From Candidatus Yanofskybacteria bacterium (GTDB taxonomy: Bacteria; Patescibacteriota; Minisyncoccia; 2-02-FULL-40-12; GWA2-44-9), in contig JACPNL010000019.1 of NCBI GenBank assembly GCA_016185505.1, positions 2,885 through 66,884 of the forward strand: a DNA stretch of 64,000 nt. The letters run 5' to 3'. The translations under genes were made by a program, and so were the position numbers. Positions 3,082 through 21,014 of this stretch are shown piece by piece (the stretch's first letter is position 1; every line of letters begins with the position of its first letter). The notes beneath the pieces were generated by a model. The model was given only the letters and a program-made list of their open reading frames with translations, searched no databases and was not told the DNA's origin.

Positions 3082-3965
3082 AAGTATTGCTACTTCACGG
3101 AGTAATCCGTGATGACAACGCGACTAATAACGGTGGAATCTTAATATTTCTGGATCTGTTGATAGCCATAATTTCAATCGGTCCGTAAATTGTGGTACAA
3201 TTTACTTGAGGACCAGAAACTATTAAGACAATACCGTGGGAAGTCGATCTAAAATTGATCTAGCGTATATGGCCGGTTTTCTTGATGGAGACGGAAGCTT
3301 GATGTTCCAACTCAAGAAACGCAAAGACGGCAAAAAGAAATGGCGGTTTATGTGCACTGTCTGTTTTTATCAAGACAGCAGGCACGATAAGACACTTCAT
3401 TGGATAAGAAGCAAGCTAAATATTGGCTATGTGTCTAAACGCAATGATGGAATGTCAGAGTTGAGAGTAAATGGGTTTAAACAAATCCGAGATATTCTCA
3501 ATGACTTATTGCCATTTGTGAAGTTTAAAAGAGTCCAGGCAAATGCTATGCATAAAGCCACGACCCTTTTGAGCAAAAAGCATAGTGGTCAACTTAATAA
3601 AAATGAACTTATTAGATTAGTTGATTATATTCTAGAAATTCAGAAGAAGAACTATGTAACAAAACGCAAGAAAGGCAGAAAAGAGTTATTATCAATTTTG
3701 GGTTTGACCCCGTAACGACTTGTTCTCGCCAACGGCGGGACGGATAGAAGTTTTTTAGCTTCTATAATATGTCGCTGACCAATGGAGGTTGGAGATTAGA
3801 GATTGGATGTTGGATTTATTCTAACTTCTCATTTCTAACCTCTAACTTCCGTTGGTTAAAGATATAGTCTACACCCGTAGTGATACGGGATAATCAATTC
3901 GCAATTCGCGGCATTCGCATATCATTTGTAGATTTGCATTATGTTGCGAGCGGAGAGAGCATGTG
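3082..3965 (+). other. Group I intron 4 in 23S rRNA (at CCTAGTA^CGAGAGGACC) carrying a LAGLIDADG ORF
   Basis: Exon breaks at ~3081 and resumes at 3966 (ACGAGAGGACCGGG). Contains CGCGACTAATAACGGTGGAATC, CCCCGTAACGAC and a CTAACYTC repeat block at 3781-3860. Confidence 0.55.
3236..3715 (+). CDS. LAGLIDADG homing endonuclease (single-motif type)
   Basis: Motif LAYMAGFLDGDGSLMF. Starts directly after the conserved intron motif ATACCGTGGGAAGT (GTG start, or ATG at 3269). Confidence 0.7.
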   Translation: MGSRSKIDLAYMAGFLDGDGSLMFQLKKRKDGKKKWRFMCTVCFYQDSRHDKTLHWIRSKLNIGYVSKRNDGMSELRVNGFKQIRDILNDLLPFVKFKRVQANAMHKATTLLSKKHSGQLNKNELIRLVDYILEIQKKNYVTKRKKGRKELLSILGLTP

Positions 3966-4242
3966 ACGAGAGGACCGGGATGAACGAACCTCTGGTCTGC
4001 CAGCTGTTCTGCCAAGAGCAGCGCTGGGTAGCTATGTTTGGTTCTGATAAGCGCTGAAAGCATATAAGCGCGAAGCAGGCCTCAAGATTAGGTATCGGGA
4101 CGCAAGTCCCAAAATTTCCTTGTAGATGACGAGGTTGATAGGGCTTAGGTGTAAGCGCCGTGAGGCGTTGAGCCGAGAGCTACTAATAAATTTACTTTGA
4201 GTAATTTGTCGCTCCTCACTTTTGTTCGGAGCTCTTCCTACA

Positions 4243-5307: not shown

Positions 5308-6114
5308 ATGGAACAACGGACTCAAAAGCAGTTAATTATCGGCCTTATTTTTGTTTTGATCATCGGCGTTATCGGCTATGGATTTGTTGACTATTTCTTT
5401 CTTACCGAGCCGACCTGTTTTGATAATGTCCAGAATGGTAAGGAAGATGGAGTTGATTGCGGCCTTTTTGCTTGCGGAGTTACCTGTGAACCAGCGATAG
5501 TACCTCTAAGCATAGTATCCCAGAAACTGATAGAAGTAAGGCCGGGGGATTACGACTTTATCGCCCAGATCCATAATCCTAACTCTTTGTTAGGCGCGTC
5601 AAGGGTCAGATATGAGCTGAATCTTGGCGCGGTTAAGACAACGGGCGCGTTTTTCATCCTTCCTGGACAAACTCGTTTTGTAATAATTCCGGGCATTCAT
5701 GCCGACGGCGGCGTATTAAGTGGTGCTTCTATTGATATCACTGAAGCGGAATGGCAGAAGGTTGAATCGTTTGAAAATATAAATTTTCCTGTCCAGAGAA
5801 AGAACTATACGGTGGTAGATAGGAACGGCGTTTTCAGCGAGCTTGAGGCGGTAATATTGAACAGTTCCGATTTTGATTTTGATAAAGTTGAAGTGGGAGT
5901 TATATTATTCTCGACTGGAGGAGAAATTGTCGCCGTCAATAGAACCGATATACGCACTTTTCTTTCCAGGACCGAAAGATCTTTCAAGGTAAGCTGGCCG
6001 GCAGAACTTCCAGAAAGTGTAAGGCAAGACATTGAGGTCTTAACTAATGTTTTCGAGAATGCTAATTTTATCCGGCGTTATGGGACACAGGAGAGGTTTC
6101 AAAAATACTACTAA
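5308..6114 (+). CDS. Hypothetical membrane-anchored protein
   Basis: 268 aa with an N-terminal TM helix LIIGLIFVLIIGVIGYGF. No recognised family. Confidence 0.5.
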   Translation: MEQRTQKQLIIGLIFVLIIGVIGYGFVDYFFLTEPTCFDNVQNGKEDGVDCGLFACGVTCEPAIVPLSIVSQKLIEVRPGDYDFIAQIHNPNSLLGASRVRYELNLGAVKTTGAFFILPGQTRFVIIPGIHADGGVLSGASIDITEAEWQKVESFENINFPVQRKNYTVVDRNGVFSELEAVILNSSDFDFDKVEVGVILFSTGGEIVAVNRTDIRTFLSRTERSFKVSWPAELPESVRQDIEVLTNVFENANFIRRYGTQERFQKYY

Positions 6115-6121
6115 TCCGTTA

Positions 6122-6268
6122 TAAATTATTCTAATTGACCTAATTATTCTAATTATTCTAAAGAAATCCCAATATCAAAATGTCCAATGTCTAAAATTAT
6201 TTAGTTATTGGGTCATTAGGATTTATTTAGGTCAATTAGGTTAATTAGTATAATTAGAATAATTTTCA
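6122..6268. repeat. Dispersed palindromic intergenic element (TAATTATTCTAATT family), copy 1
   Basis: CTAATTATTCTAATTATTCTAAAG...GTCATTAGGATTTATTTAGGTCAATTAGGTTAATTAGTATAATTAGAATAATT. Near-identical copies lie at 29817-29957 and 46100-46350. Confidence 0.6.
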
Positions 6269-6294
6269 GATGATTACATTCGACTACTGTATTT

Positions 6295-7392
6295 ATGGCA
6301 AACTTTTCAAAAAACATAAGGTCTTATTTCCGCGAAGTAGATACTCCGCTCTTTATCGCAGTGGTAGCAATTTCTTTATTGGGTGCTTTGAATTTGTGGG
6401 GTATTGCCGGCGCCGATAGTTTGCTTTTTAAAAAACAACTCGTTTTTATTGCCATCGGCTTGACTGTAATGTTGGCGCTGTCTTTCTTTAACTACAGGTA
6501 TCTTAAGAATTATTCCTTGCCGGTGCTGGGCTTTTACTTCGTTTCCGTATTCTTATTGCTTTTGACTTTTTATTCCCAGTCGGTACGGGGAGTCAACTCT
6601 TGGATAATTTTGGGCAGTTTGACGTTCGAGCCGGTGGAATTGGCCAAGTTGATGTTGATCGTGTTGATGGCCAAGTACTTTTCCCAGAGACACGTTCATA
6701 TAAATGATTTCCGCCATATAGTCGTGGCCGGAATATATTTCTCTTTGCCTTTTGCTATAATCTTTCTTCAGCCGGATCTTGGTTCTTCCATTATATTCTT
6801 GGCTATCTGGCTGGGAATGCTTATGGCTGCCGGTATAAATAAGCGCCACTTGTTTCTGCTCGTCTCCGTCGGGGTTTTGGTAGGATATACAGCATGGCTG
6901 TTTGCTCTCCAGCCGTATCAGAAGACGAGGATAACGTCATTTCTGGATCCCTATAACGATCCAAAAGGGAGCGGTTATAATATCATTCAGTCAAAAATAG
7001 CGATCGGTTCCGGATATTTTTTCGGTAACGGTTTTGGCCAAGGTTCTCAAAGTAAGCATGGTTTCTTGCCGGAGCCACACAATGATTTCGCCTTTGCCGC
7101 CTTTACGGAGCAATTCGGCCTTATGGGCATAAGCGCGGTTATGGTGATGGTTCTAATCATCATTTCCCGTATTCTTTATATCGGGTCTAGAGTCATTTCT
7201 AATTTCGGTAAGCTTTTTTCCATAGGCCTTGCCGTGTTCATTGGCTCCCACGTATTCATAAGCGCCGGGGTCAACATAGGGTTGCTTCCGGTAACAGGGC
7301 TTTCCTTTTCGTTCTTAAGTTACGGCGGTAGCCACCTTTTGTCACTTATGGTAGGACTGGGAATACTACAGAGCATCAAACGTTATGGGTAA
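6295..7392 (+). CDS. ftsW: SEDS-family peptidoglycan glycosyltransferase FtsW/RodA
   Basis: 10-TM protein with the SEDS-family motifs LQPDLGS and GYNIIQSKIAIGSGYFFGNGFGQGSQSKHGFLPEPHNDFAFAAFTEQFGLMG. Confidence 0.85.
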   Translation: MANFSKNIRSYFREVDTPLFIAVVAISLLGALNLWGIAGADSLLFKKQLVFIAIGLTVMLALSFFNYRYLKNYSLPVLGFYFVSVFLLLLTFYSQSVRGVNSWIILGSLTFEPVELAKLMLIVLMAKYFSQRHVHINDFRHIVVAGIYFSLPFAIIFLQPDLGSSIIFLAIWLGMLMAAGINKRHLFLLVSVGVLVGYTAWLFALQPYQKTRITSFLDPYNDPKGSGYNIIQSKIAIGSGYFFGNGFGQGSQSKHGFLPEPHNDFAFAAFTEQFGLMGISAVMVMVLIIISRILYIGSRVISNFGKLFSIGLAVFIGSHVFISAGVNIGLLPVTGLSFSFLSYGGSHLLSLMVGLGILQSIKRYG

Positions 7393-11190: not shown

Positions 11191-14100
11191 GTGGATTTAT
11201 CCAGCATAAAACTTAAAATCGCGTCTCCCGAGGATATTTTGTCTTGGTCATACGGTGAGGTCACGAAGCCCGAGACCATCAACTACCGAACCCAGAAGCC
11301 GGAAAGGGAAGGTCTTTTTTCAGAGGCCATTTTCGGGCCGGTCAAGGATTGGGAATGCTATTGCGGAAAATATAAAAGGATAAGGTACAAGGGTATCATC
11401 TGCGACAGATGCGGTGTTGAGGTTACCAGATCCATAGTCAGACGAGAAAGAATGGGTCACATTAAACTGGCCGCGCCGGTGGCTCATATTTGGTTTCTGC
11501 GGGGCGTTCCTTCCAAGATAGCCACCGTTTTAGGCGCCAGTTTACAGGAACTTGAAAAGGTCGTCTACTTCGCGAGCTATATAATAATGAAAGCGAATGA
11601 AGACCTGAAAGCGGAAGCGATGAAAAGGATTGAGAACGAGTTTAAGACAAAGATCAAGAATTCTAAAAATGAAGCCGAACAAGAGAGTCTGAAAGAACAA
11701 AAAGATAGGGAGAAGAATAATTTAAGGAATTTAAGAAAATATCAGATTGTTTCGGAGCTTGATTTCCGCGACCTGTCTCTAAAATACGGGGAGGTGTTTG
11801 AGGCGGGCATAGGCGCGGAGGCGATAAAGCGTTTGCTTGAAGAGATAAACTTCGAAGACCTTGTTGCCGAAATAGAAAGCGAAGTAAAAAGCGAATCGAA
11901 TCCATTAGAGCAAAGAAAGCTGACAAGACGCTTGAGATTCATAAAAGGAATGAAGAAAGCGGAGATAAGGCCCGAGTGGATGATTTTGAGCACATTGCCG
12001 GTCATCCCCCCCGCTTTGAGGCCGATGGTACCTCTGGACGGTGGCCGCTACGCGACGTCAGATCTTAATGACCTATACAGGAGGGTGATCAACAGAAACA
12101 ACCGCTTGAAGCATTTGCTCGAACTTAAGGCTCCGGAAGTCATTACAAAGAACGAAAAGAGAATGCTTCAGGAGTCGGTTGACGCTCTTATAGACAATGC
12201 AATGAGAAGGGGGGGAGGAGTTACTACTGCTGCTTCAACGGGGCAGAAAAGGGCGCTCCGCTCTCTTGCCGATATGTTAAAAGGCAAACAGGGAAGATTC
12301 AGGCAGAACTTGCTTGGAAAACGAGTTGATTACTCCGGTCGTTCGGTTATCGTTATTGGTCCGGAACTTGGTATTGCCGAGTGCGGTCTTCCCAAAAGAA
12401 TGGCTTTGGAACTTTTCAAGCCGTTCGTGATAGGGATTTTGATAAGAAAAGAATTGGCTCACAACATTAAATCGGCGAGCCGTCTGATAGAGCAGGAAAC
12501 ACCGGATGTCTGGACGGCATTGGAAGAAGCGATGGAAGGCAAGCTGGTATTGCTCAATCGCGCGCCGACATTGCATCGTCTGTCTGTTCAGGCATTTAAG
12601 CCGACACTAATAGAAGGTAAAGCGATCAAAATTCCCGCTATGCCCGTGCATGCTTTTAATGCTGACTTTGATGGTGACCAGATGGCGGTTCACTTGCCGC
12701 TTACGAACGAAGCTCAAAAAGAAGCCAAGGACTTGATGCTATCCAGCCACGGCATACTGAAGCCGGCCACGGGCGAACCCGTCGCTATACCGAGCCACGA
12801 TATGTCATTTGGAATTTATTTTATTACTAATATGCTTGAGAACGCCAAAGGCGAAGGCAAGATATTTTCTTCCCGGTATGAAGCGCTTCTTGCTCATGAG
12901 AACGAGTTTATTGATCTTCGGGCAAAGATAAAAATACCGAACCCCGACTATAAAGAGCCAGGCGACAGAGATTCCCGGCTCCGCACGGGAACCTTATCCG
13001 AGCAAGGTTCACGCCGAGGAACTTCGGCGGGAATCGCCTCAGGTAGCGACGCGGAGAAGATCATTGAGACAACCGTAGGCCGCGTAATATTCAACAAAAT
13101 ATTGCCTAAGGAATTTCGATATGTGAATAAAACCCTCACTAAACCCGACTTAAAAGCTATCAGCTCCGATATATGGGACGAATACGGCGAGGAAGTAATG
13201 GTGGATTTCTTAGACAAAGTTAAAAACCTTGGCTTTCACTATGCAACGGTATCCGGCGTCTCCTGGAGTATGAGTGATTTGAGAGTTCCTCAAGAAAAGC
13301 AGCAAATCATAGAAGAGGCCGACAGGGTTATAGAAGAGAACAGGCACTTGTACGAGAACGGCTTGTTGACAGACCATGAAAGAAAGTCAAAAGCGATTGA
13401 AGTATGGAACAATGCTAAAGCCAAACTTTCTGCGTTGGTAAAAAAAGAGTTGGCTATTCAGGACCCGGTTTATATGATAGTTGATTCCAGGGCCAGAGGC
13501 AGTTGGGGGCCAATCGACCAAATGATGGGCATGAGAGGTATCGTGGTTAATCCTTCAGGTGAACTCATAGAACTGCCTATCAGGAATTCTTTGAAAGAAG
13601 GGATGACATCTCTTGAGTACTTCATTTCTACTCACGGCGCCAGAAAAGGTCTAGTGGACACGGCTCTCAAAACAGCCGAGGCCGGCTACCTCACCCGTAA
13701 ATTGGTTGATGTGGCGCAAAGCGTGGTTGTGCTGGAAGATGATTGTAAAGATAAAGAAGGATATGTGGTTTACGCTGAAGACAAAAAAATAAACGGGGAA
13801 ACACTGGGCCGTCGTTTGAAAGGTCGGGTAGTGATGGAGGACTTAATAGATAAGAATGGCGAAGTTATCGTAAAAAAGGGTAAAATGGTTGACAAAGAAG
13901 CCGCGGTCAAAATAGATGAAGCCGGGATAGACCAAGCGAGGATAAGATCTCTTGTAAGATGTAAGGCGCTTAATGGTGTTTGTCGTATGTGTTATGGCCA
14001 CGATCTGTCAAAGGGCGAACTTATAAATATCGGAGAGGCCGTCGGTATTGTCACCGCGCAAGCGATCGGAGAGCCGGGGACCCAGCTTACAATGAGAACG

Positions 14101-18101: not shown

Positions 18102-19004
18102 ATGGCAAAAAAACAAGACGATTCAAAATCAAAACAGGTCGATCTGACTGTTAAAGAACTTCAGGAGAAATACGGCGAGGGGTCAATAATGAAGCTTGGC
18201 GAAGCCAAGAAAGTAGATATCGACGCCATATCGACTGGCTCCATATCTTTGGATTTAGCATTGGGAGTAGGCGGCATACCCAGGGGTAGGATAATAGAAA
18301 TCTACGGGCCGGAAAGTTCCGGTAAGACAACTTTGTGTTTACACATAGTATCTGAAGCTCAAAAGCTTGGCGGTATTGCCGCTTTTGTGGACGCAGAGCA
18401 CGCGCTTGATCCGGAATATGCAAAAAAAATAGGAGTTAAAATAGACCAGCTTTTAATTTCCCAGCCTGATACGGGAGAGGGTTTGCAGGCGCGCTTGATG
18501 TCCCACGCGTTAAGGAAACTTACGGCTATTGTGGCCAAGTCCAATACCACCGTAATTTTTATAAACCAGTTAAGAATGAAGATAGGCGTTATGTTCGGTA
18601 ATCCCGAAATTACCACCGGCGGTATGGCTTTGAAATTTTATTCTTCGGTTCGTATTGAAGTCCGTCGCGCGGCTCAAATACAATCAGGAGAAAAAATAGT
18701 GGGGAATAGGGTGAAAGTAAAAGTGGTTAAAAACAAAGTCGCGCCCCCGTTCAGAACTTGCGAATTCGATATTCTCTATAATGAGGGCATCTCAAAATAT
18801 TCCGATGTTGTTAACGCCGGAGTTAAATACGGCATAGTGGCTAAAGCGGGAAGTTGGTACAACTACCTGCCTGCGCAGGCAGGTGGCGAACCAATAAGAT
18901 TGGGTCAAGGTATAGACGGCTCGAGATTGTTTCTCAAAGATAATCCCAAAGTGGAGCGGGAAATTCTAAACAAAATTAAGGAGGCCGCAACGCGCGAGGC
19001 ATAA
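18102..19004 (+). CDS. recA: Recombinase RecA
   Basis: GPESSGKTT Walker A and full-length RecA homology. Confidence 0.95.
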
Positions 19005-19046
19005 AATATCGAAATTTCGATATGTCGATATTTCGAAATATCTTTT

Positions 19047-19346
19047 GTGGCGACCATTTCTAAATTTGAGGACCTGATTTGCTGGCAAAAAGCCAGAGAG
19101 TTGGCCAATTTTATATTTGATATTACAGATAATGCTCAATTTAGGGACTTTGATCTTAAGCGCCAGATCAGACGTGCGGCAATTTCACCGATGTCTAATA
19201 TCGCGGAAGGTTTTGACAGAGGTACGAGAGGAGAGTTTGTTGATGCCTTGTTTATTGCTAAAGGAGAAGTTGGTGAAGTAAGATGCCAACTTTATATTTC
19301 AAGCGATAGGCGATATATCGAAATGTCTAAATATCGAAATTTCTGA
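19047..19346 (+). CDS. Four-helix-bundle protein of the 23S-rRNA-IVS / Avd-like family (TIGR02436-type)
   Basis: MATISKFEDLICWQKARELANFIFDIT...IRRAAISPMSNIAEGFDRGTRGEF matches the family signature (DL.vWQKA.EL; R.A.Si..NIAEG). It is flanked on both sides by ATATCGAAAT palindromic repeats (19003-19046 and 19312-19345). Confidence 0.7.
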   Translation: MATISKFEDLICWQKARELANFIFDITDNAQFRDFDLKRQIRRAAISPMSNIAEGFDRGTRGEFVDALFIAKGEVGEVRCQLYISSDRRYIEMSKYRNF

Positions 19347-19350
19347 CCTA

Positions 19351-19380
19351 TTGACAAGGTATAGGGCGGTATGCTATACT
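19351..19380 (+). promoter_or_regulatory. Strong sigma70-type promoter TTGACA-N18-TATACT driving the downstream non-coding RNA block
   Basis: TTGACAAGGTATAGGGCGGTATGCTATACT. The predicted transcription start is near 19387. Confidence 0.55.
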
Positions 19381-19386
19381 GAAAGG

Positions 19387-19530
19387 GATGCTGGAGGATG
19401 GCTAGTCACGCTTCACGGCTGGCGGCCTGCGAAAGCAAGTCCTCGCAGCAGGTGTTTGAATCGTCGGGCAGATACGGCGTTCGTCAGGGTGGGGGTTCTG
19501 GGGACTCCCGGGGCCTCCACCCGCCCTTTT
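19387..19530 (+). ncRNA. Unassigned ~140-nt structured small RNA with its own intrinsic terminator (SRP-RNA-like features are speculative)
   Basis: GC-rich against an AT-rich genome and no credible ORF. Contains the GNRA hairpin UGCGAAAGCA and ends in the terminator GGGTGGGGGTTCTGGGGACTCCCGGGGCCTCCACCCGCCCTTTTT. Confidence 0.3.
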
Positions 19531-19589
19531 TCAATCTTGGCCTCGCGAAATTGGTTCATCCTGAGCTTGTCGAAGGGTGGCTCAATTCC

Positions 19590-19950
19590 GCGAGGCCTGG
19601 AAACATTGAGAAATGGGAGATGTCTCCGGGGTAAAGGTCGAAAGACCCTCCGGAGTAGGTCTGGTTCAAGCCCAGACCCAGTGCCTCGCCGCGTTCTTTC
19701 CGGCACAAGAGGGGTGGAAGTCGGGAAGCAGTACTGTACTACTGTTGCCATCCCGTACCTAGTTGAATCAACCGGGGGAACGATGTGCAGATCGTTCCTC
19801 CTCGCTACCAGGTTTATCAAGTAGTGGTTCAAGATCAGCTTGACAAGTCTGGTAGCGAGGCCGATAAAAAGTCGCTGGATGGCGACTGGCTGGCCAGTAA
19901 CAAATCTGGTCTTCGACGTTCGGGGTTCGTGTTGGAGCCTCGGCCTCGCT
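19590..19950 (+). ncRNA. rnpB: Candidate RNase P RNA (divergent type-A-like)
   Basis: Motif matches in the collinear order of E. coli M1 RNA: GAAAGACCC (cf. GGAAAGUCCGGGC, P4 5' strand); CCAGUGC; AGAGGGGUGGAAGUCGGGAAGCAG (cf. AGGGUGAAAGGGUGCGGUAAGAGCG); GCUGGCCAGU (cf. GCUGGCCUAG); ACAAAUCUGGUCUU (cf. ACAGAACCCGGCUU, J18/2 plus P4 3' strand, complementary to AAGACC). Possible P1: CGCGAGGCC / GGCCUCGCG. Boundaries are approximate. Confidence 0.35.
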
Positions 19951-19986
19951 CGTTCTTTCAATAAAAACTTGTGTGTGGACGGCTGT

Positions 19987-20068
19987 GGACGCTTAGCTCA
20001 GCGAGAGAGCGCCGGGGAGGTCTTAGTGACCGAACTGGAGGTTGGAGGTTTGATCCCTCCAGCGTCCA
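19987..20068 (+). ncRNA. tRNA-like element (perfect 7-bp acceptor stem plus T-arm; no canonical anticodon arm)
   Basis: GGACGCT...GGAGG-TTTGATC-CCTCC-AGCGTCC-A. A D-arm is possible (GCTC/GAGC), but the ~34 nt between the D and T arms do not form an anticodon stem. Confidence 0.35.
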
Positions 20069-20135
20069 TCAACCAAACCAAGCTCCGCTTGAGCAGCACT
20101 GCTCGCGGAGCCAGATACCATTCGGTATCTGACCA

Positions 20136-20170
20136 GTCCCGCATCGCATGGTGCGGGGTTTTTGTTTTTA
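20136..20170 (+). terminator. Rho-independent terminator closing the ncRNA block
   Basis: CCCGCATCGCATGGTGCGGGG followed by TTTTTGTTTTT. Confidence 0.6.
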
Positions 20171-20474
20171 ACGAGAGGTCTGGCCGCGGGTATATGGCAT
20201 CAGCGCCATATACCTTGCGAGTTTGACGGCTTGGGCTATCATTCGCTGATGGGAACTGCAAAGTTTGTTCCTTCGGGATGCGCCGATCTTGAATTGAGAC
20301 GTGACAAATTTCCGCAAAAAGCGGGTATTTTTATAATCAACTCTATTTATGTTGTCCTGACAGAAAATACATTGCATGTTTAGAAACAAGCGACAAGAGA
20401 CAAGATACCAAGTAAGCAAGTAAGAATAATTTACGGTTTCACTACTTGGTCGCATGTCCCTTGTTTCTTGGTTG

Positions 20475-21014
20475 CTAGAACGGGAGGTCTTCTTCTTTTA
20501 TCTTAACCTCATCTTCCTCAATCCCGTACGAAACAGAGGCGCGCTGCGAGCCCTCGCGGTTTCGTTCGGAATCAACACCGCTTGATACCGGGTCGTTGGC
20601 GTCTATTATGGGGATATCGTCGTCCTTGACAGGCGTTGGGCTTACTCGATTTGGTTGAATATCTGACACCGTTGCGTTTGCGTTTCCCATTCTTGGCCCA
20701 AGTTGAAGTCCTTCAGCCACTATTTCGGTTGTGTATCTCTTAATATTATTTTGGTCGGTCCAACTTCTTGTCTGAATTCGCCCCTCTATCATTACTAGTC
20801 CGCCCTTTTTCAGGTATTGATTGACTATCTCGCCCAAGCGCCCCCAAGCAACAACTCTGTGAAATTCAGCCGCTGTTTGTTTTTCTCCATTTTTGTCTGT
20901 CCAGGCCCTATTCGTCGCCATATTCAAAGTCGTGACGGTCTGACCGGTTTGGGTTGAGCGCATTTCCGGGTCTTGGGTTAGGTTGCCTATCAAAAAGATT
21001 TTATTCAGATTCAT
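20475..21014 (-). CDS. ssb: Single-stranded DNA-binding protein
   Basis: OB-fold N-terminus (LIGNLTQDPEMRST...) and an acidic C-terminal tail ending DLPF. Confidence 0.9.
   Translation of the reverse strand: MNLNKIFLIGNLTQDPEMRSTQTGQTVTTLNMATNRAWTDKNGEKQTAAEFHRVVAWGRLGEIVNQYLKKGGLVMIEGRIQTRSWTDQNNIKRYTTEIVAEGLQLGPRMGNANATVSDIQPNRVSPTPVKDDDIPIIDANDPVSSGVDSERNREGSQRASVSYGIEEDEVKIKEEDLPF

Follow-up and report, generated by a model that had tools for sequence, protein, structure and literature searches.

This report concerns a small gene in a 64,000-nucleotide stretch of contig JACPNL010000019.1 from a Candidatus Yanofskybacteria bacterium (the whole stretch is called the window below): an open reading frame (ORF) of the PF05635/TIGR02436 four-helix-bundle (4HB) family, lying just downstream of recA and bracketed by arrays of short repeats. 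It can be said with high confidence that this ORF is a deletion derivative, truncated at its 3' end, of a strongly conserved, single-copy PF05635 subfamily of the bacteria of the Candidate Phyla Radiation (CPR; Parcubacteria-type). The intact CPR unit is recognized with equally high confidence: an array of 8-nt units with a TCGA core, an ORF of ~155 aa that often carries an internal 3-unit array at codons ~89-98, and a second array of 8-nt TCGA units, the whole fitting tightly, with no sequence to spare, between a same-strand housekeeping gene (recA in the window, mostly secA elsewhere), at its stop codon, and the gene that follows. The bracketing of operon-borne PF05635 genes by arms made of repeat arrays appears to be a family-wide pattern, undescribed in the literature searched. 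The explanation that accounts best for these observations as a whole joins a decayed CPR cassette, in the window, to an intact cassette that would work in the manner of the intervening sequences (IVSs) of 23S rRNA genes; on balance, we think it right.

The shortened gene and its flanks

The ORF to which the original prediction drew attention is real, and its assignment to the 4HB family is borne out by a search with profile hidden Markov models: the 99-aa product matches PF05635 at 2.8e-26 (92.2 bits; cutoff 33.8) and TIGR02436 at 3e-24 (85.3 bits; cutoff 24). What escaped the prediction is that the gene is truncated at its 3' end and that its flanking repeats are 8-nt tandem units. The profile alignments end at position 92 of 106 (PF05635, starting from position 1) and 89 of 109 (TIGR02436). 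A protein search returned 1,812 relatives; the best 120, which were examined, are 74-95% identical over 90-99% of the query, and nearly all of them are 147-171 aa long (~155 aa), versus 99 aa in the window. The window protein ends with ...RRYIEMSKYRNF and a stop codon; the relatives run on as ...RRYIDISKFRNGLALTDECSRLIQSF... One full-length relative, P0001, spans PF05635 positions 1-105 of 106, and its AlphaFold monomer model (predicted local distance difference test score 85) has helices at residues 11-27, 35-57, 61-87 and 93-119, with a low-confidence C-terminal tail beyond helix 4. Because helix 4 occupies residues 93-119 of this model and the window ORF stops at residue 99, the window protein is without helix 4; it is not a complete four-helix bundle.

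The elements of the cassette are these:

19003 to 19042, no strand assigned: upstream array, 4-5 units of 8 nt (ATATCGAA ATTTCGAT ATGTCGAT ATTTCGAA ATATC), reaching from the recA stop codon to 4 nt before the GTG
19011 to 19042, no strand assigned: left arm of an inverted repeat, pairing with 19312-19343 to close the cassette with a stem, as the RNA fold is predicted
19047 to 19346, plus strand: truncated PF05635/TIGR02436 four-helix-bundle ORF, GTG start, 99 aa, with helices 1-3 and just the opening residues of the fourth
19310 to 19343, no strand assigned: right-hand array, by alignment the ancestral internal coding array (codons RYI(D/E)xSK(F/Y)RN), joined at ~19340/19341 to TTCTGACC
19312 to 19343, no strand assigned: right arm of the inverted repeat, from the repeat finder and the predicted fold

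The flanks had been described as copies of a self-complementary decamer, ATATCGAAAT. The strings quoted for them are indeed present at 19003-19042 and 19312-19343, but the decamer is not self-complementary, because its reverse complement is ATTTCGATAT; the repeating element is really an 8-nt unit with a TCGA core, arrayed in tandem (cores at 19009/17/25/33 and at 19318/(26)/34). Exact copies of ATATCGAAAT stand at 19006(+), 19014(-), 19315(+) and 19331(+), with near-copies at 19022 and 19030, and there is a single other exact copy in the 64 kb, at 13113; allowing at most one mismatch gives 22 matches in the window versus 9.8 +/- 3.3 in shuffled sequence. The arms at 19011-19042 and 19312-19343 constitute, according to the repeat finder, a 32-nt inverted repeat of 88% complementarity. 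A scan with Rfam models at a permissive E-value over 18900-20500 gave no match within the arrays.

How did the gene come to be short? In two close relatives (L001 and L002) the gene after recA encodes 154 aa, with 93% identity to the window protein, and two more (L003 and L054) have the 4HB gene with its downstream sequence; synteny of recA with the 4HB gene, of the 4HB gene with the downstream promoter, or of both, is common to L001, L002 and L054, and a homologous upstream array is found at the same place in all four. The gene of the close relatives has three arrays: upstream, internal and coding (the codons for YIDISKFRN, TATATCGATATATCGAAATTTCGAAAT), and downstream, the last followed by TTCTGACCCCTTGACA... 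and the promoter of the next RNA. The window matches L001 to the end of the internal array (window position 19340) and picks up again at TTCTGACC, which in the relatives is the sequence directly past the downstream array. Because the alignment breaks and resumes in this way, ~207 nt (L001 2350-2556) are absent from the window. Both breakpoints fall in arrays, the one internal and the other downstream, and what was non-coding sequence past the downstream array now supplies the TGA stop (19344-19346). Read from this alignment, the right "flank" of the window ORF is ancestral coding sequence fused to sequence from beyond the downstream array. The ~207 nt would have been lost when the internal and downstream arrays recombined or slipped against each other; what remains is an ORF of 99 aa that lacks helix 4 and has complementary arrays still closing it. 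The function of this copy has probably been lost.

(A technical note on other irregular copies: short database homologues of 100-110 aa were considered as recurrences of the same deletion and rejected; they are contig-end fragments of normal sequence. At L026 4001-4174 there is another decayed CPR homologue, broken after codon 57 with its remainder in another frame, through frameshift or sequencing error. L003 2-143 is the reverse complement of the first ~100 nt of the gene, joined at the palindromic upstream array; this palindromic contig start was considered as an inversion and is judged an assembly artefact, most likely a de Bruijn-graph hairpin at the array.)

The model of the full-length relative P0001, not of the truncated copy, was compared with known structures. 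Its best match is Xcc0516 (2GSC; template-modeling (TM) score 0.88-0.90), which is also found by sequence search at 1.5e-7; the second is BT_0352 (2RLD; TM 0.80-0.88), and the third Avd (4DWL; TM 0.82-0.85, 11% identity), so that the Avd-like fold that had been predicted is recovered. The standalone, pentameric S23p proteins Xcc0516 and BT_0352 are thus the closest known relatives by fold, and Xcc0516 by sequence as well (root-mean-square deviation 1.4-1.8 Å, 27% identity); in comparison with them the window copy is without helix 4, and the CPR subfamily adds the low-confidence tail of ~35 aa. No description of flanking arrays for Xcc0516 or BT_0352 was found in the literature searched.

Avd is the accessory protein of diversity-generating retroelements (DGRs), and its resemblance to P0001, together with the frequency of PF05635, which among accessory domains is the one most often found near reverse transcriptases of DGRs (PMC10053308), raises the thought that the window gene is an orphan Avd gene, left behind when a reverse transcriptase and a pair of template and variable repeats were lost. 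The locus is not a DGR, and the original prediction had already denied that it is a complete one: no reverse transcriptase is found among the window neighbors from FtsK to PGM (the window as a whole was not exhaustively domain-scanned), and there is no direct repeat of at least 40 nt in 9000-30000, that is, within +/-10 kb, and so no template/variable repeat pair (~100 nt). That it is the remnant of one is scarcely credible. No reverse transcriptase-like neighbor recurs in other CPR loci (most neighbors there were clustered by similarity, not annotated), the closest structures are the standalone S23p proteins rather than Avd, and the context, unlike that of Avd, is one of housekeeping operons.

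Arrays that accompany the gene

A scan of GTDB, one genome per species, yielded 23 CPR loci, at 75-87% identity, and 22 more, at ~50% identity, in Bacteroidota and other phyla. In 25 CPR loci, pairs of TCGA at a spacing of exactly 8 nt number 62 in 7.5 kb of +/-150-nt flanks of the 4HB gene, 12 within the 4HB genes themselves, and 10 in 162 kb of other sequence; the peaks of TCGA-TCGA spacing recur at 16, 24, 32 and 40 nt. Arrays of at least 3 TCGA units are found at the gene in 24 of the 25 other CPR loci and in 0 of the 22 non-CPR loci. The CPR arrays, typically of 4-5 units, sit 1-15 nt from the start codon and 0-5 nt from the stop codon, and the upstream ones often begin at the stop codon of the preceding gene. 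The unit consensus is wATwTCGA, and the 8-nt phase is kept even through degenerate units.

The few arrays that lie away from the 4HB gene are in frame within essential genes, where they encode ISKFRN-like peptides. Because three units make 24 nt, or 8 codons, arrays are tolerated in coding sequence. Instances are L017 2652-2679 (secA, IDISKFRNIE), L017 7310-7329 (gatB, MSTFRDFDM) and L012 5246-5273 (proS, TSKYRNVEM).

Might the arrays be ordinary regulatory sequence with no tie to the ORF, for instance a terminator for recA or, at the promoter of the downstream RNA, an A/T-rich UP element? What speaks for it is the place of the right array, ~10 to 40 nt before the -35 box in the promoter at 19351. 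Yet the window contains just two TCGA arrays in its 64 kb, both at the ends of the 4HB ORF, the T-tract form of a terminator is absent, and the arrays stay with the gene where its surroundings are quite different (secA/secD, MazG/NUDIX and others). An unlinked regulatory element is very unlikely; the repeats belong to the gene, as had been supposed, and are not terminators scattered through the genome.

Non-CPR PF05635 genes are also bracketed by short tandem arrays, with units of 7-10 nt that differ from the CPR unit: GTCRAAA / TTTYGAC in Flavobacteriaceae, GTAnAGTT / AACTnTAC in Cytophagales, and elsewhere AAATTTGA, CAATTTT, ATCTGATTA and a 10-mer in a Desulfobia metagenome-assembled genome. 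All of these pairs are inverted, the downstream array being the reverse complement of its upstream partner. The 22 non-CPR loci hold 30 PF05635 ORFs, several loci having two cassettes of different units; at least one array is found at 24 of these 30 ORFs, and 33 of the 61 arrays detected (at least 3 copies, 7-10-nt period) fall in the 5.6% of sequence that adjoins a PF05635 ORF. The upstream arm has more G than C on the coding strand in 13 of 16 cassettes. Many of these genes occupy sufB-sufC or sufC-sufD junctions, as read from the start and end peptides of their neighbors. Arenibacter troitsensis DSM 19835 (L036), Flavobacterium caeni (L039) and Maribacter arenosus (L043) are cultivable bacteria with cassettes apparently so placed. 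Nine Bacteroidota loci (L038, L039, L044, L047, L050, L051, L052, L040 and L032) have at least two PF05635 cassettes within a few kb of each other, in what appears to be the suf operon, and the arrays around each are of a different unit. In L038, at 5783-6405, there is also a run of seven arrays of GACGAAA/GTCTTTC type without a recognized ORF.

Are these, then, small selfish mobile cassettes, transposing or homing with the arrays as terminal inverted repeats and with a preference for structured-RNA genes, as the original prediction proposed? Much in the anatomy invites the idea: a single ORF is tightly bracketed by inverted arms; different lineages have it at different junctions (recA, secA, sufB-sufC, sufC-sufD); solo arrays are found in frame within other genes; the IVSs of 23S rRNA, home to members of the family, are regarded as selfish; and the arrays evidently recombine, as the deletion in the window shows. 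Against it stand the numbers and the rates. There is one 4HB copy in the 64 kb and one locus per genome in the GTDB scan, a scan of the viral contigs of IMG/VR found no 4HB relatives, and no transposase or recombinase travels with the cassette. Synonymous sites are saturated in the 4HB gene and in secA, and substitutions per nonsynonymous site (dN) in the 4HB gene are about half those of secA; even the close pair L017/L019 has 1.26 substitutions per synonymous site (dS) in the 4HB gene versus 1.08 in secA. There is no sign of recent transfer, because dS is saturated as in secA and similar for both genes in L017/L019. Between the window and L001 the 4HB gene has dN 0.048 and dS 0.97; with dN/dS at ~0.05, the 4HB protein is, to judge from substitution rates, under strong purifying selection.

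Nor is the gene adrift: secA is immediately or nearly upstream of it in 9 of 26 loci, and in the CPR loci it is usually on the same strand as its upstream neighbor. As for empty sites, all four close relatives carry the cassette, and a metagenome scan for such sites with a 20-mer of the downstream RNA block (GCAGTACTGTACTACTGTTG) gave only unrelated contigs (four of them, L055-L058, otherwise dissimilar). The supposed targeting of structured-RNA genes finds no support: no tRNA or Rfam RNA adjoins the gene in the other CPR loci checked (25 with ARAGORN, 18 of these with Rfam), and the usual neighbor is secA. Copy number, substitution rates and synteny present a cassette that is not a recently mobile selfish element, and the selfish explanation is improbable. 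Of the predicted IVS-type selfish cassette the IVS-like anatomy survives comparison with the Coxiella IVS; current selfishness does not.

The surrounding sequence

The window is CPR-like bacterial sequence of 43.7% GC. The neighbors of the 4HB gene in it are FtsK, a hypothetical protein, RecA, SSB, S6, YchF and PGM; exact-protein look-ups found no identical protein on record for the 4HB protein, RecA or SSB. The two elements that adjoin the cassette are:

18102 to 19004, plus strand: recA, by profile match; its stop codon abuts the upstream array
19351 to 19380, plus strand: near-consensus promoter (TTGACA-18-TATACT) of the downstream GC-rich RNA block, outside the cassette and kept beside the downstream array in L001 and L054

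recA has an in-frame deletion of its own, of 41 residues relative to L001, with its junction near 18476-18486; it takes out the Walker B region and leaves a protein of 300 aa versus 351 aa. Two adjacent genes, recA and the 4HB gene, are each internally deleted in this assembly.

The promoter at 19351 is followed, in 19351-20170, by ~600 nt at 52-62% GC without Rfam match, closed by a strong terminator at 20135-20170. L001 and L003 share one stretch of this block, 19684-19866, at 76% identity. At 19987-20068 there is a tRNA-like element with a 19-nt insert in its anticodon arm; ARAGORN does not call it, and the tRNA model of Rfam recognizes it, at 44 bits, in a small-window search only. Fragments of 23S rRNA at 1-448 and 3947-4193 are separated by a ~3.5-kb interruption between model positions ~2636 and ~2652, whose three ORFs (518-1153, 1422-2096, 3236-3715) have LAGLIDADG-like motifs, of the group I intron or homing endonuclease type. 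There is no PF05635 IVS inside this insertion in the window's 23S rRNA gene.

Two possible mechanisms: processing a stem or reading the units

The known systems that come closest to the cassette are the 23S rRNA IVSs of Coxiella burnetii, Leptospira and Brucella (PMC4990558), whose protein belongs to the same PF05635 family. In Coxiella the S23p ORF is decaying and lies within a 28-bp terminal stem that is cut by RNase III, with 2-3 tandem GACAGAT heptamers, their number depending on the strain, directly before the S23p start (PMC4990558). Cassette and IVS alike have an ORF within terminal inverted repeats able to form a stem of ~28-32 bp, short tandem repeats of variable number directly before the start (GACAGAT in Coxiella, 8-nt TCGA units here), no recognizable Shine-Dalgarno sequence, and an ORF prone to decay by deletion. 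They differ in that the IVS sits in helix 25 or 45 of the 23S rRNA gene, whereas the cassette lies between protein-coding genes (in the window, between recA and an unrelated promoter), the window's own 23S gene being interrupted by the LAGLIDADG-type insertions. The CPR protein is also longer, with its extra C-terminal tail, and under strong purifying selection.

By analogy with these characterized IVSs, transcription would read through from the upstream gene into the intact cassette, its 5' array would pair with its 3' array into a stem of ~25-35 bp enclosing the ORF, and this stem would be a processing site for RNase III, specific for double-stranded RNA, freeing the ORF RNA from the host transcript. 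A sequence-specific factor would additionally read the units, the pentameric product being the obvious candidate. That the intact cassette behaves in this way is plausible, at something short of an even chance. Read-through is to be expected in the window, where recA lies directly 5' of the cassette on the same strand, because inspection for terminators found no terminator-like site between the two. In the predicted window fold, in silico only, the two arrays pair as the closing stem in the structure of minimum free energy (MFE; -106.7 kcal/mol, z -5.5) and in the centroid structure; in that of L001 the upstream array divides its pairing between the internal array and the downstream one. Sequence-specific reading is indicated because the unit is conserved across lineages whose synonymous sites are saturated, and is argued also by the strict periodicity and by the differences in unit between protein subfamilies.

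(Two further observations bear on RNA structure and leaders. Two opposed upstream arrays around a short GC-rich spacer are found at L019 2716-2825, L023 67-169, L031 3924-3991 and L008 5867-5986 and in the upstream regions of L037 and L041; since such an array-loop-array hairpin before the ORF exists besides the downstream array, alternative pairings are possible. The missing Shine-Dalgarno sequence was considered as a sign of leaderless or processed mRNA and rejected, SD-like motifs being rare in all genes: 8 of 34 window genes, 9 of 83 neighbors and 1 of 25 4HB genes.)

Several points weigh against the IVS-like working just outlined: 1) Since the function of the window copy is probably lost, any mechanism applies to the ancestral cassette. 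2) Arm mismatches show no excess of G-U over A-C (20 v 21 in CPR, 20 v 17 in the others), and most are transversions. 3) The arms of a CPR locus are no more complementary to each other than to those of other loci (18.8 within v 17.7 between; permutation p 0.08); because cross-locus pairing is as good, arm pairing follows from the shared near-palindromic unit and not from compensatory change. The evidence for a selected RNA helix is weak. 4) Several loci (L008, L010, L011, L016) have an upstream array only. 5) A plain stem leaves the tandem periodicity and the conservation of the unit unexplained. 6) The Coxiella authors thought S23p to be untranslated (PMC4990558), whereas the strong purifying selection seen here says that the protein matters.

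With a different emphasis, the arrays would serve above all as sites to which the encoded pentamer binds, one unit of 7-10 nt per subunit, whether in DNA or in single-stranded RNA; the stem would be incidental, and the outcome would be autoregulation or a nucleoprotein complex. The absence of a G-U signature and of compensatory change, the strict 8-nt phasing even through degenerate units, and the conservation of wATwTCGA where dS is saturated are all as such binding would have them. So are the units that differ between protein subfamilies, and even between two copies in one operon, and the extra in-frame arrays in secA, gatB and proS. The typical array has 4-5 units, and the homologues of solved structure, 2GSC and 2RLD, are both pentamers, with five chains in each; Avd, which has the same four-helix-bundle fold, acts as a pentamer in complex with RNA in the DGR ribonucleoprotein (8UB7 and related entries).

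Unspaced short-repeat operators read by small oligomeric proteins are known from the heptads of the omega repressor of pSM19035 and the 11 triplet repeats of TRAP. The analogy would lie in the spacer-less arrays of 7-8-nt (or 3-nt) units, direct or inverted, beside the gene of the binding protein; the folds of omega and TRAP are unrelated to that of PF05635 proteins. On the other side, binding alone requires neither the inverted orientation of the arrays nor their polarity, G-rich upstream and C-rich downstream, and a trans-acting factor other than the encoded product might do the reading. Binding-site arrays as the primary function are possible, if rather doubtful. We infer a ranking with stem processing first and binding-site arrays second; the two are not exclusive.

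To our knowledge, the S23p or 23S-IVS proteins, known for about thirty years and very numerous, have been assigned no function outside DGRs, and the literature searched yielded no functional work on standalone PF05635/TIGR02436 members. The window gene itself adds a caution: being a truncated remnant, it should be annotated neither as an intact four-helix-bundle protein nor as Avd. The wider pattern is of more interest than the remnant that led to it. An architecture of ORF within repeat stem is shown outside rRNA, in the housekeeping operons of CPR bacteria and Bacteroidota; its unit sequences co-vary with a protein that is under strong purifying selection; and arrays that bracket a gene family are a testable clue to the function of S23p proteins. 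Tentatively, and with more doubt than belief, one can think of PF05635 proteins and their flanking arrays as a widespread self-contained module, in which the pentamer would read its own 7-10-nt units, one per subunit, on the transcript or on DNA. If that is true, the classical 23S rRNA IVSs would be the rRNA-resident cases of a general "operon intervening sequence", and the S23p/Avd-like family would gain its first function outside DGRs.

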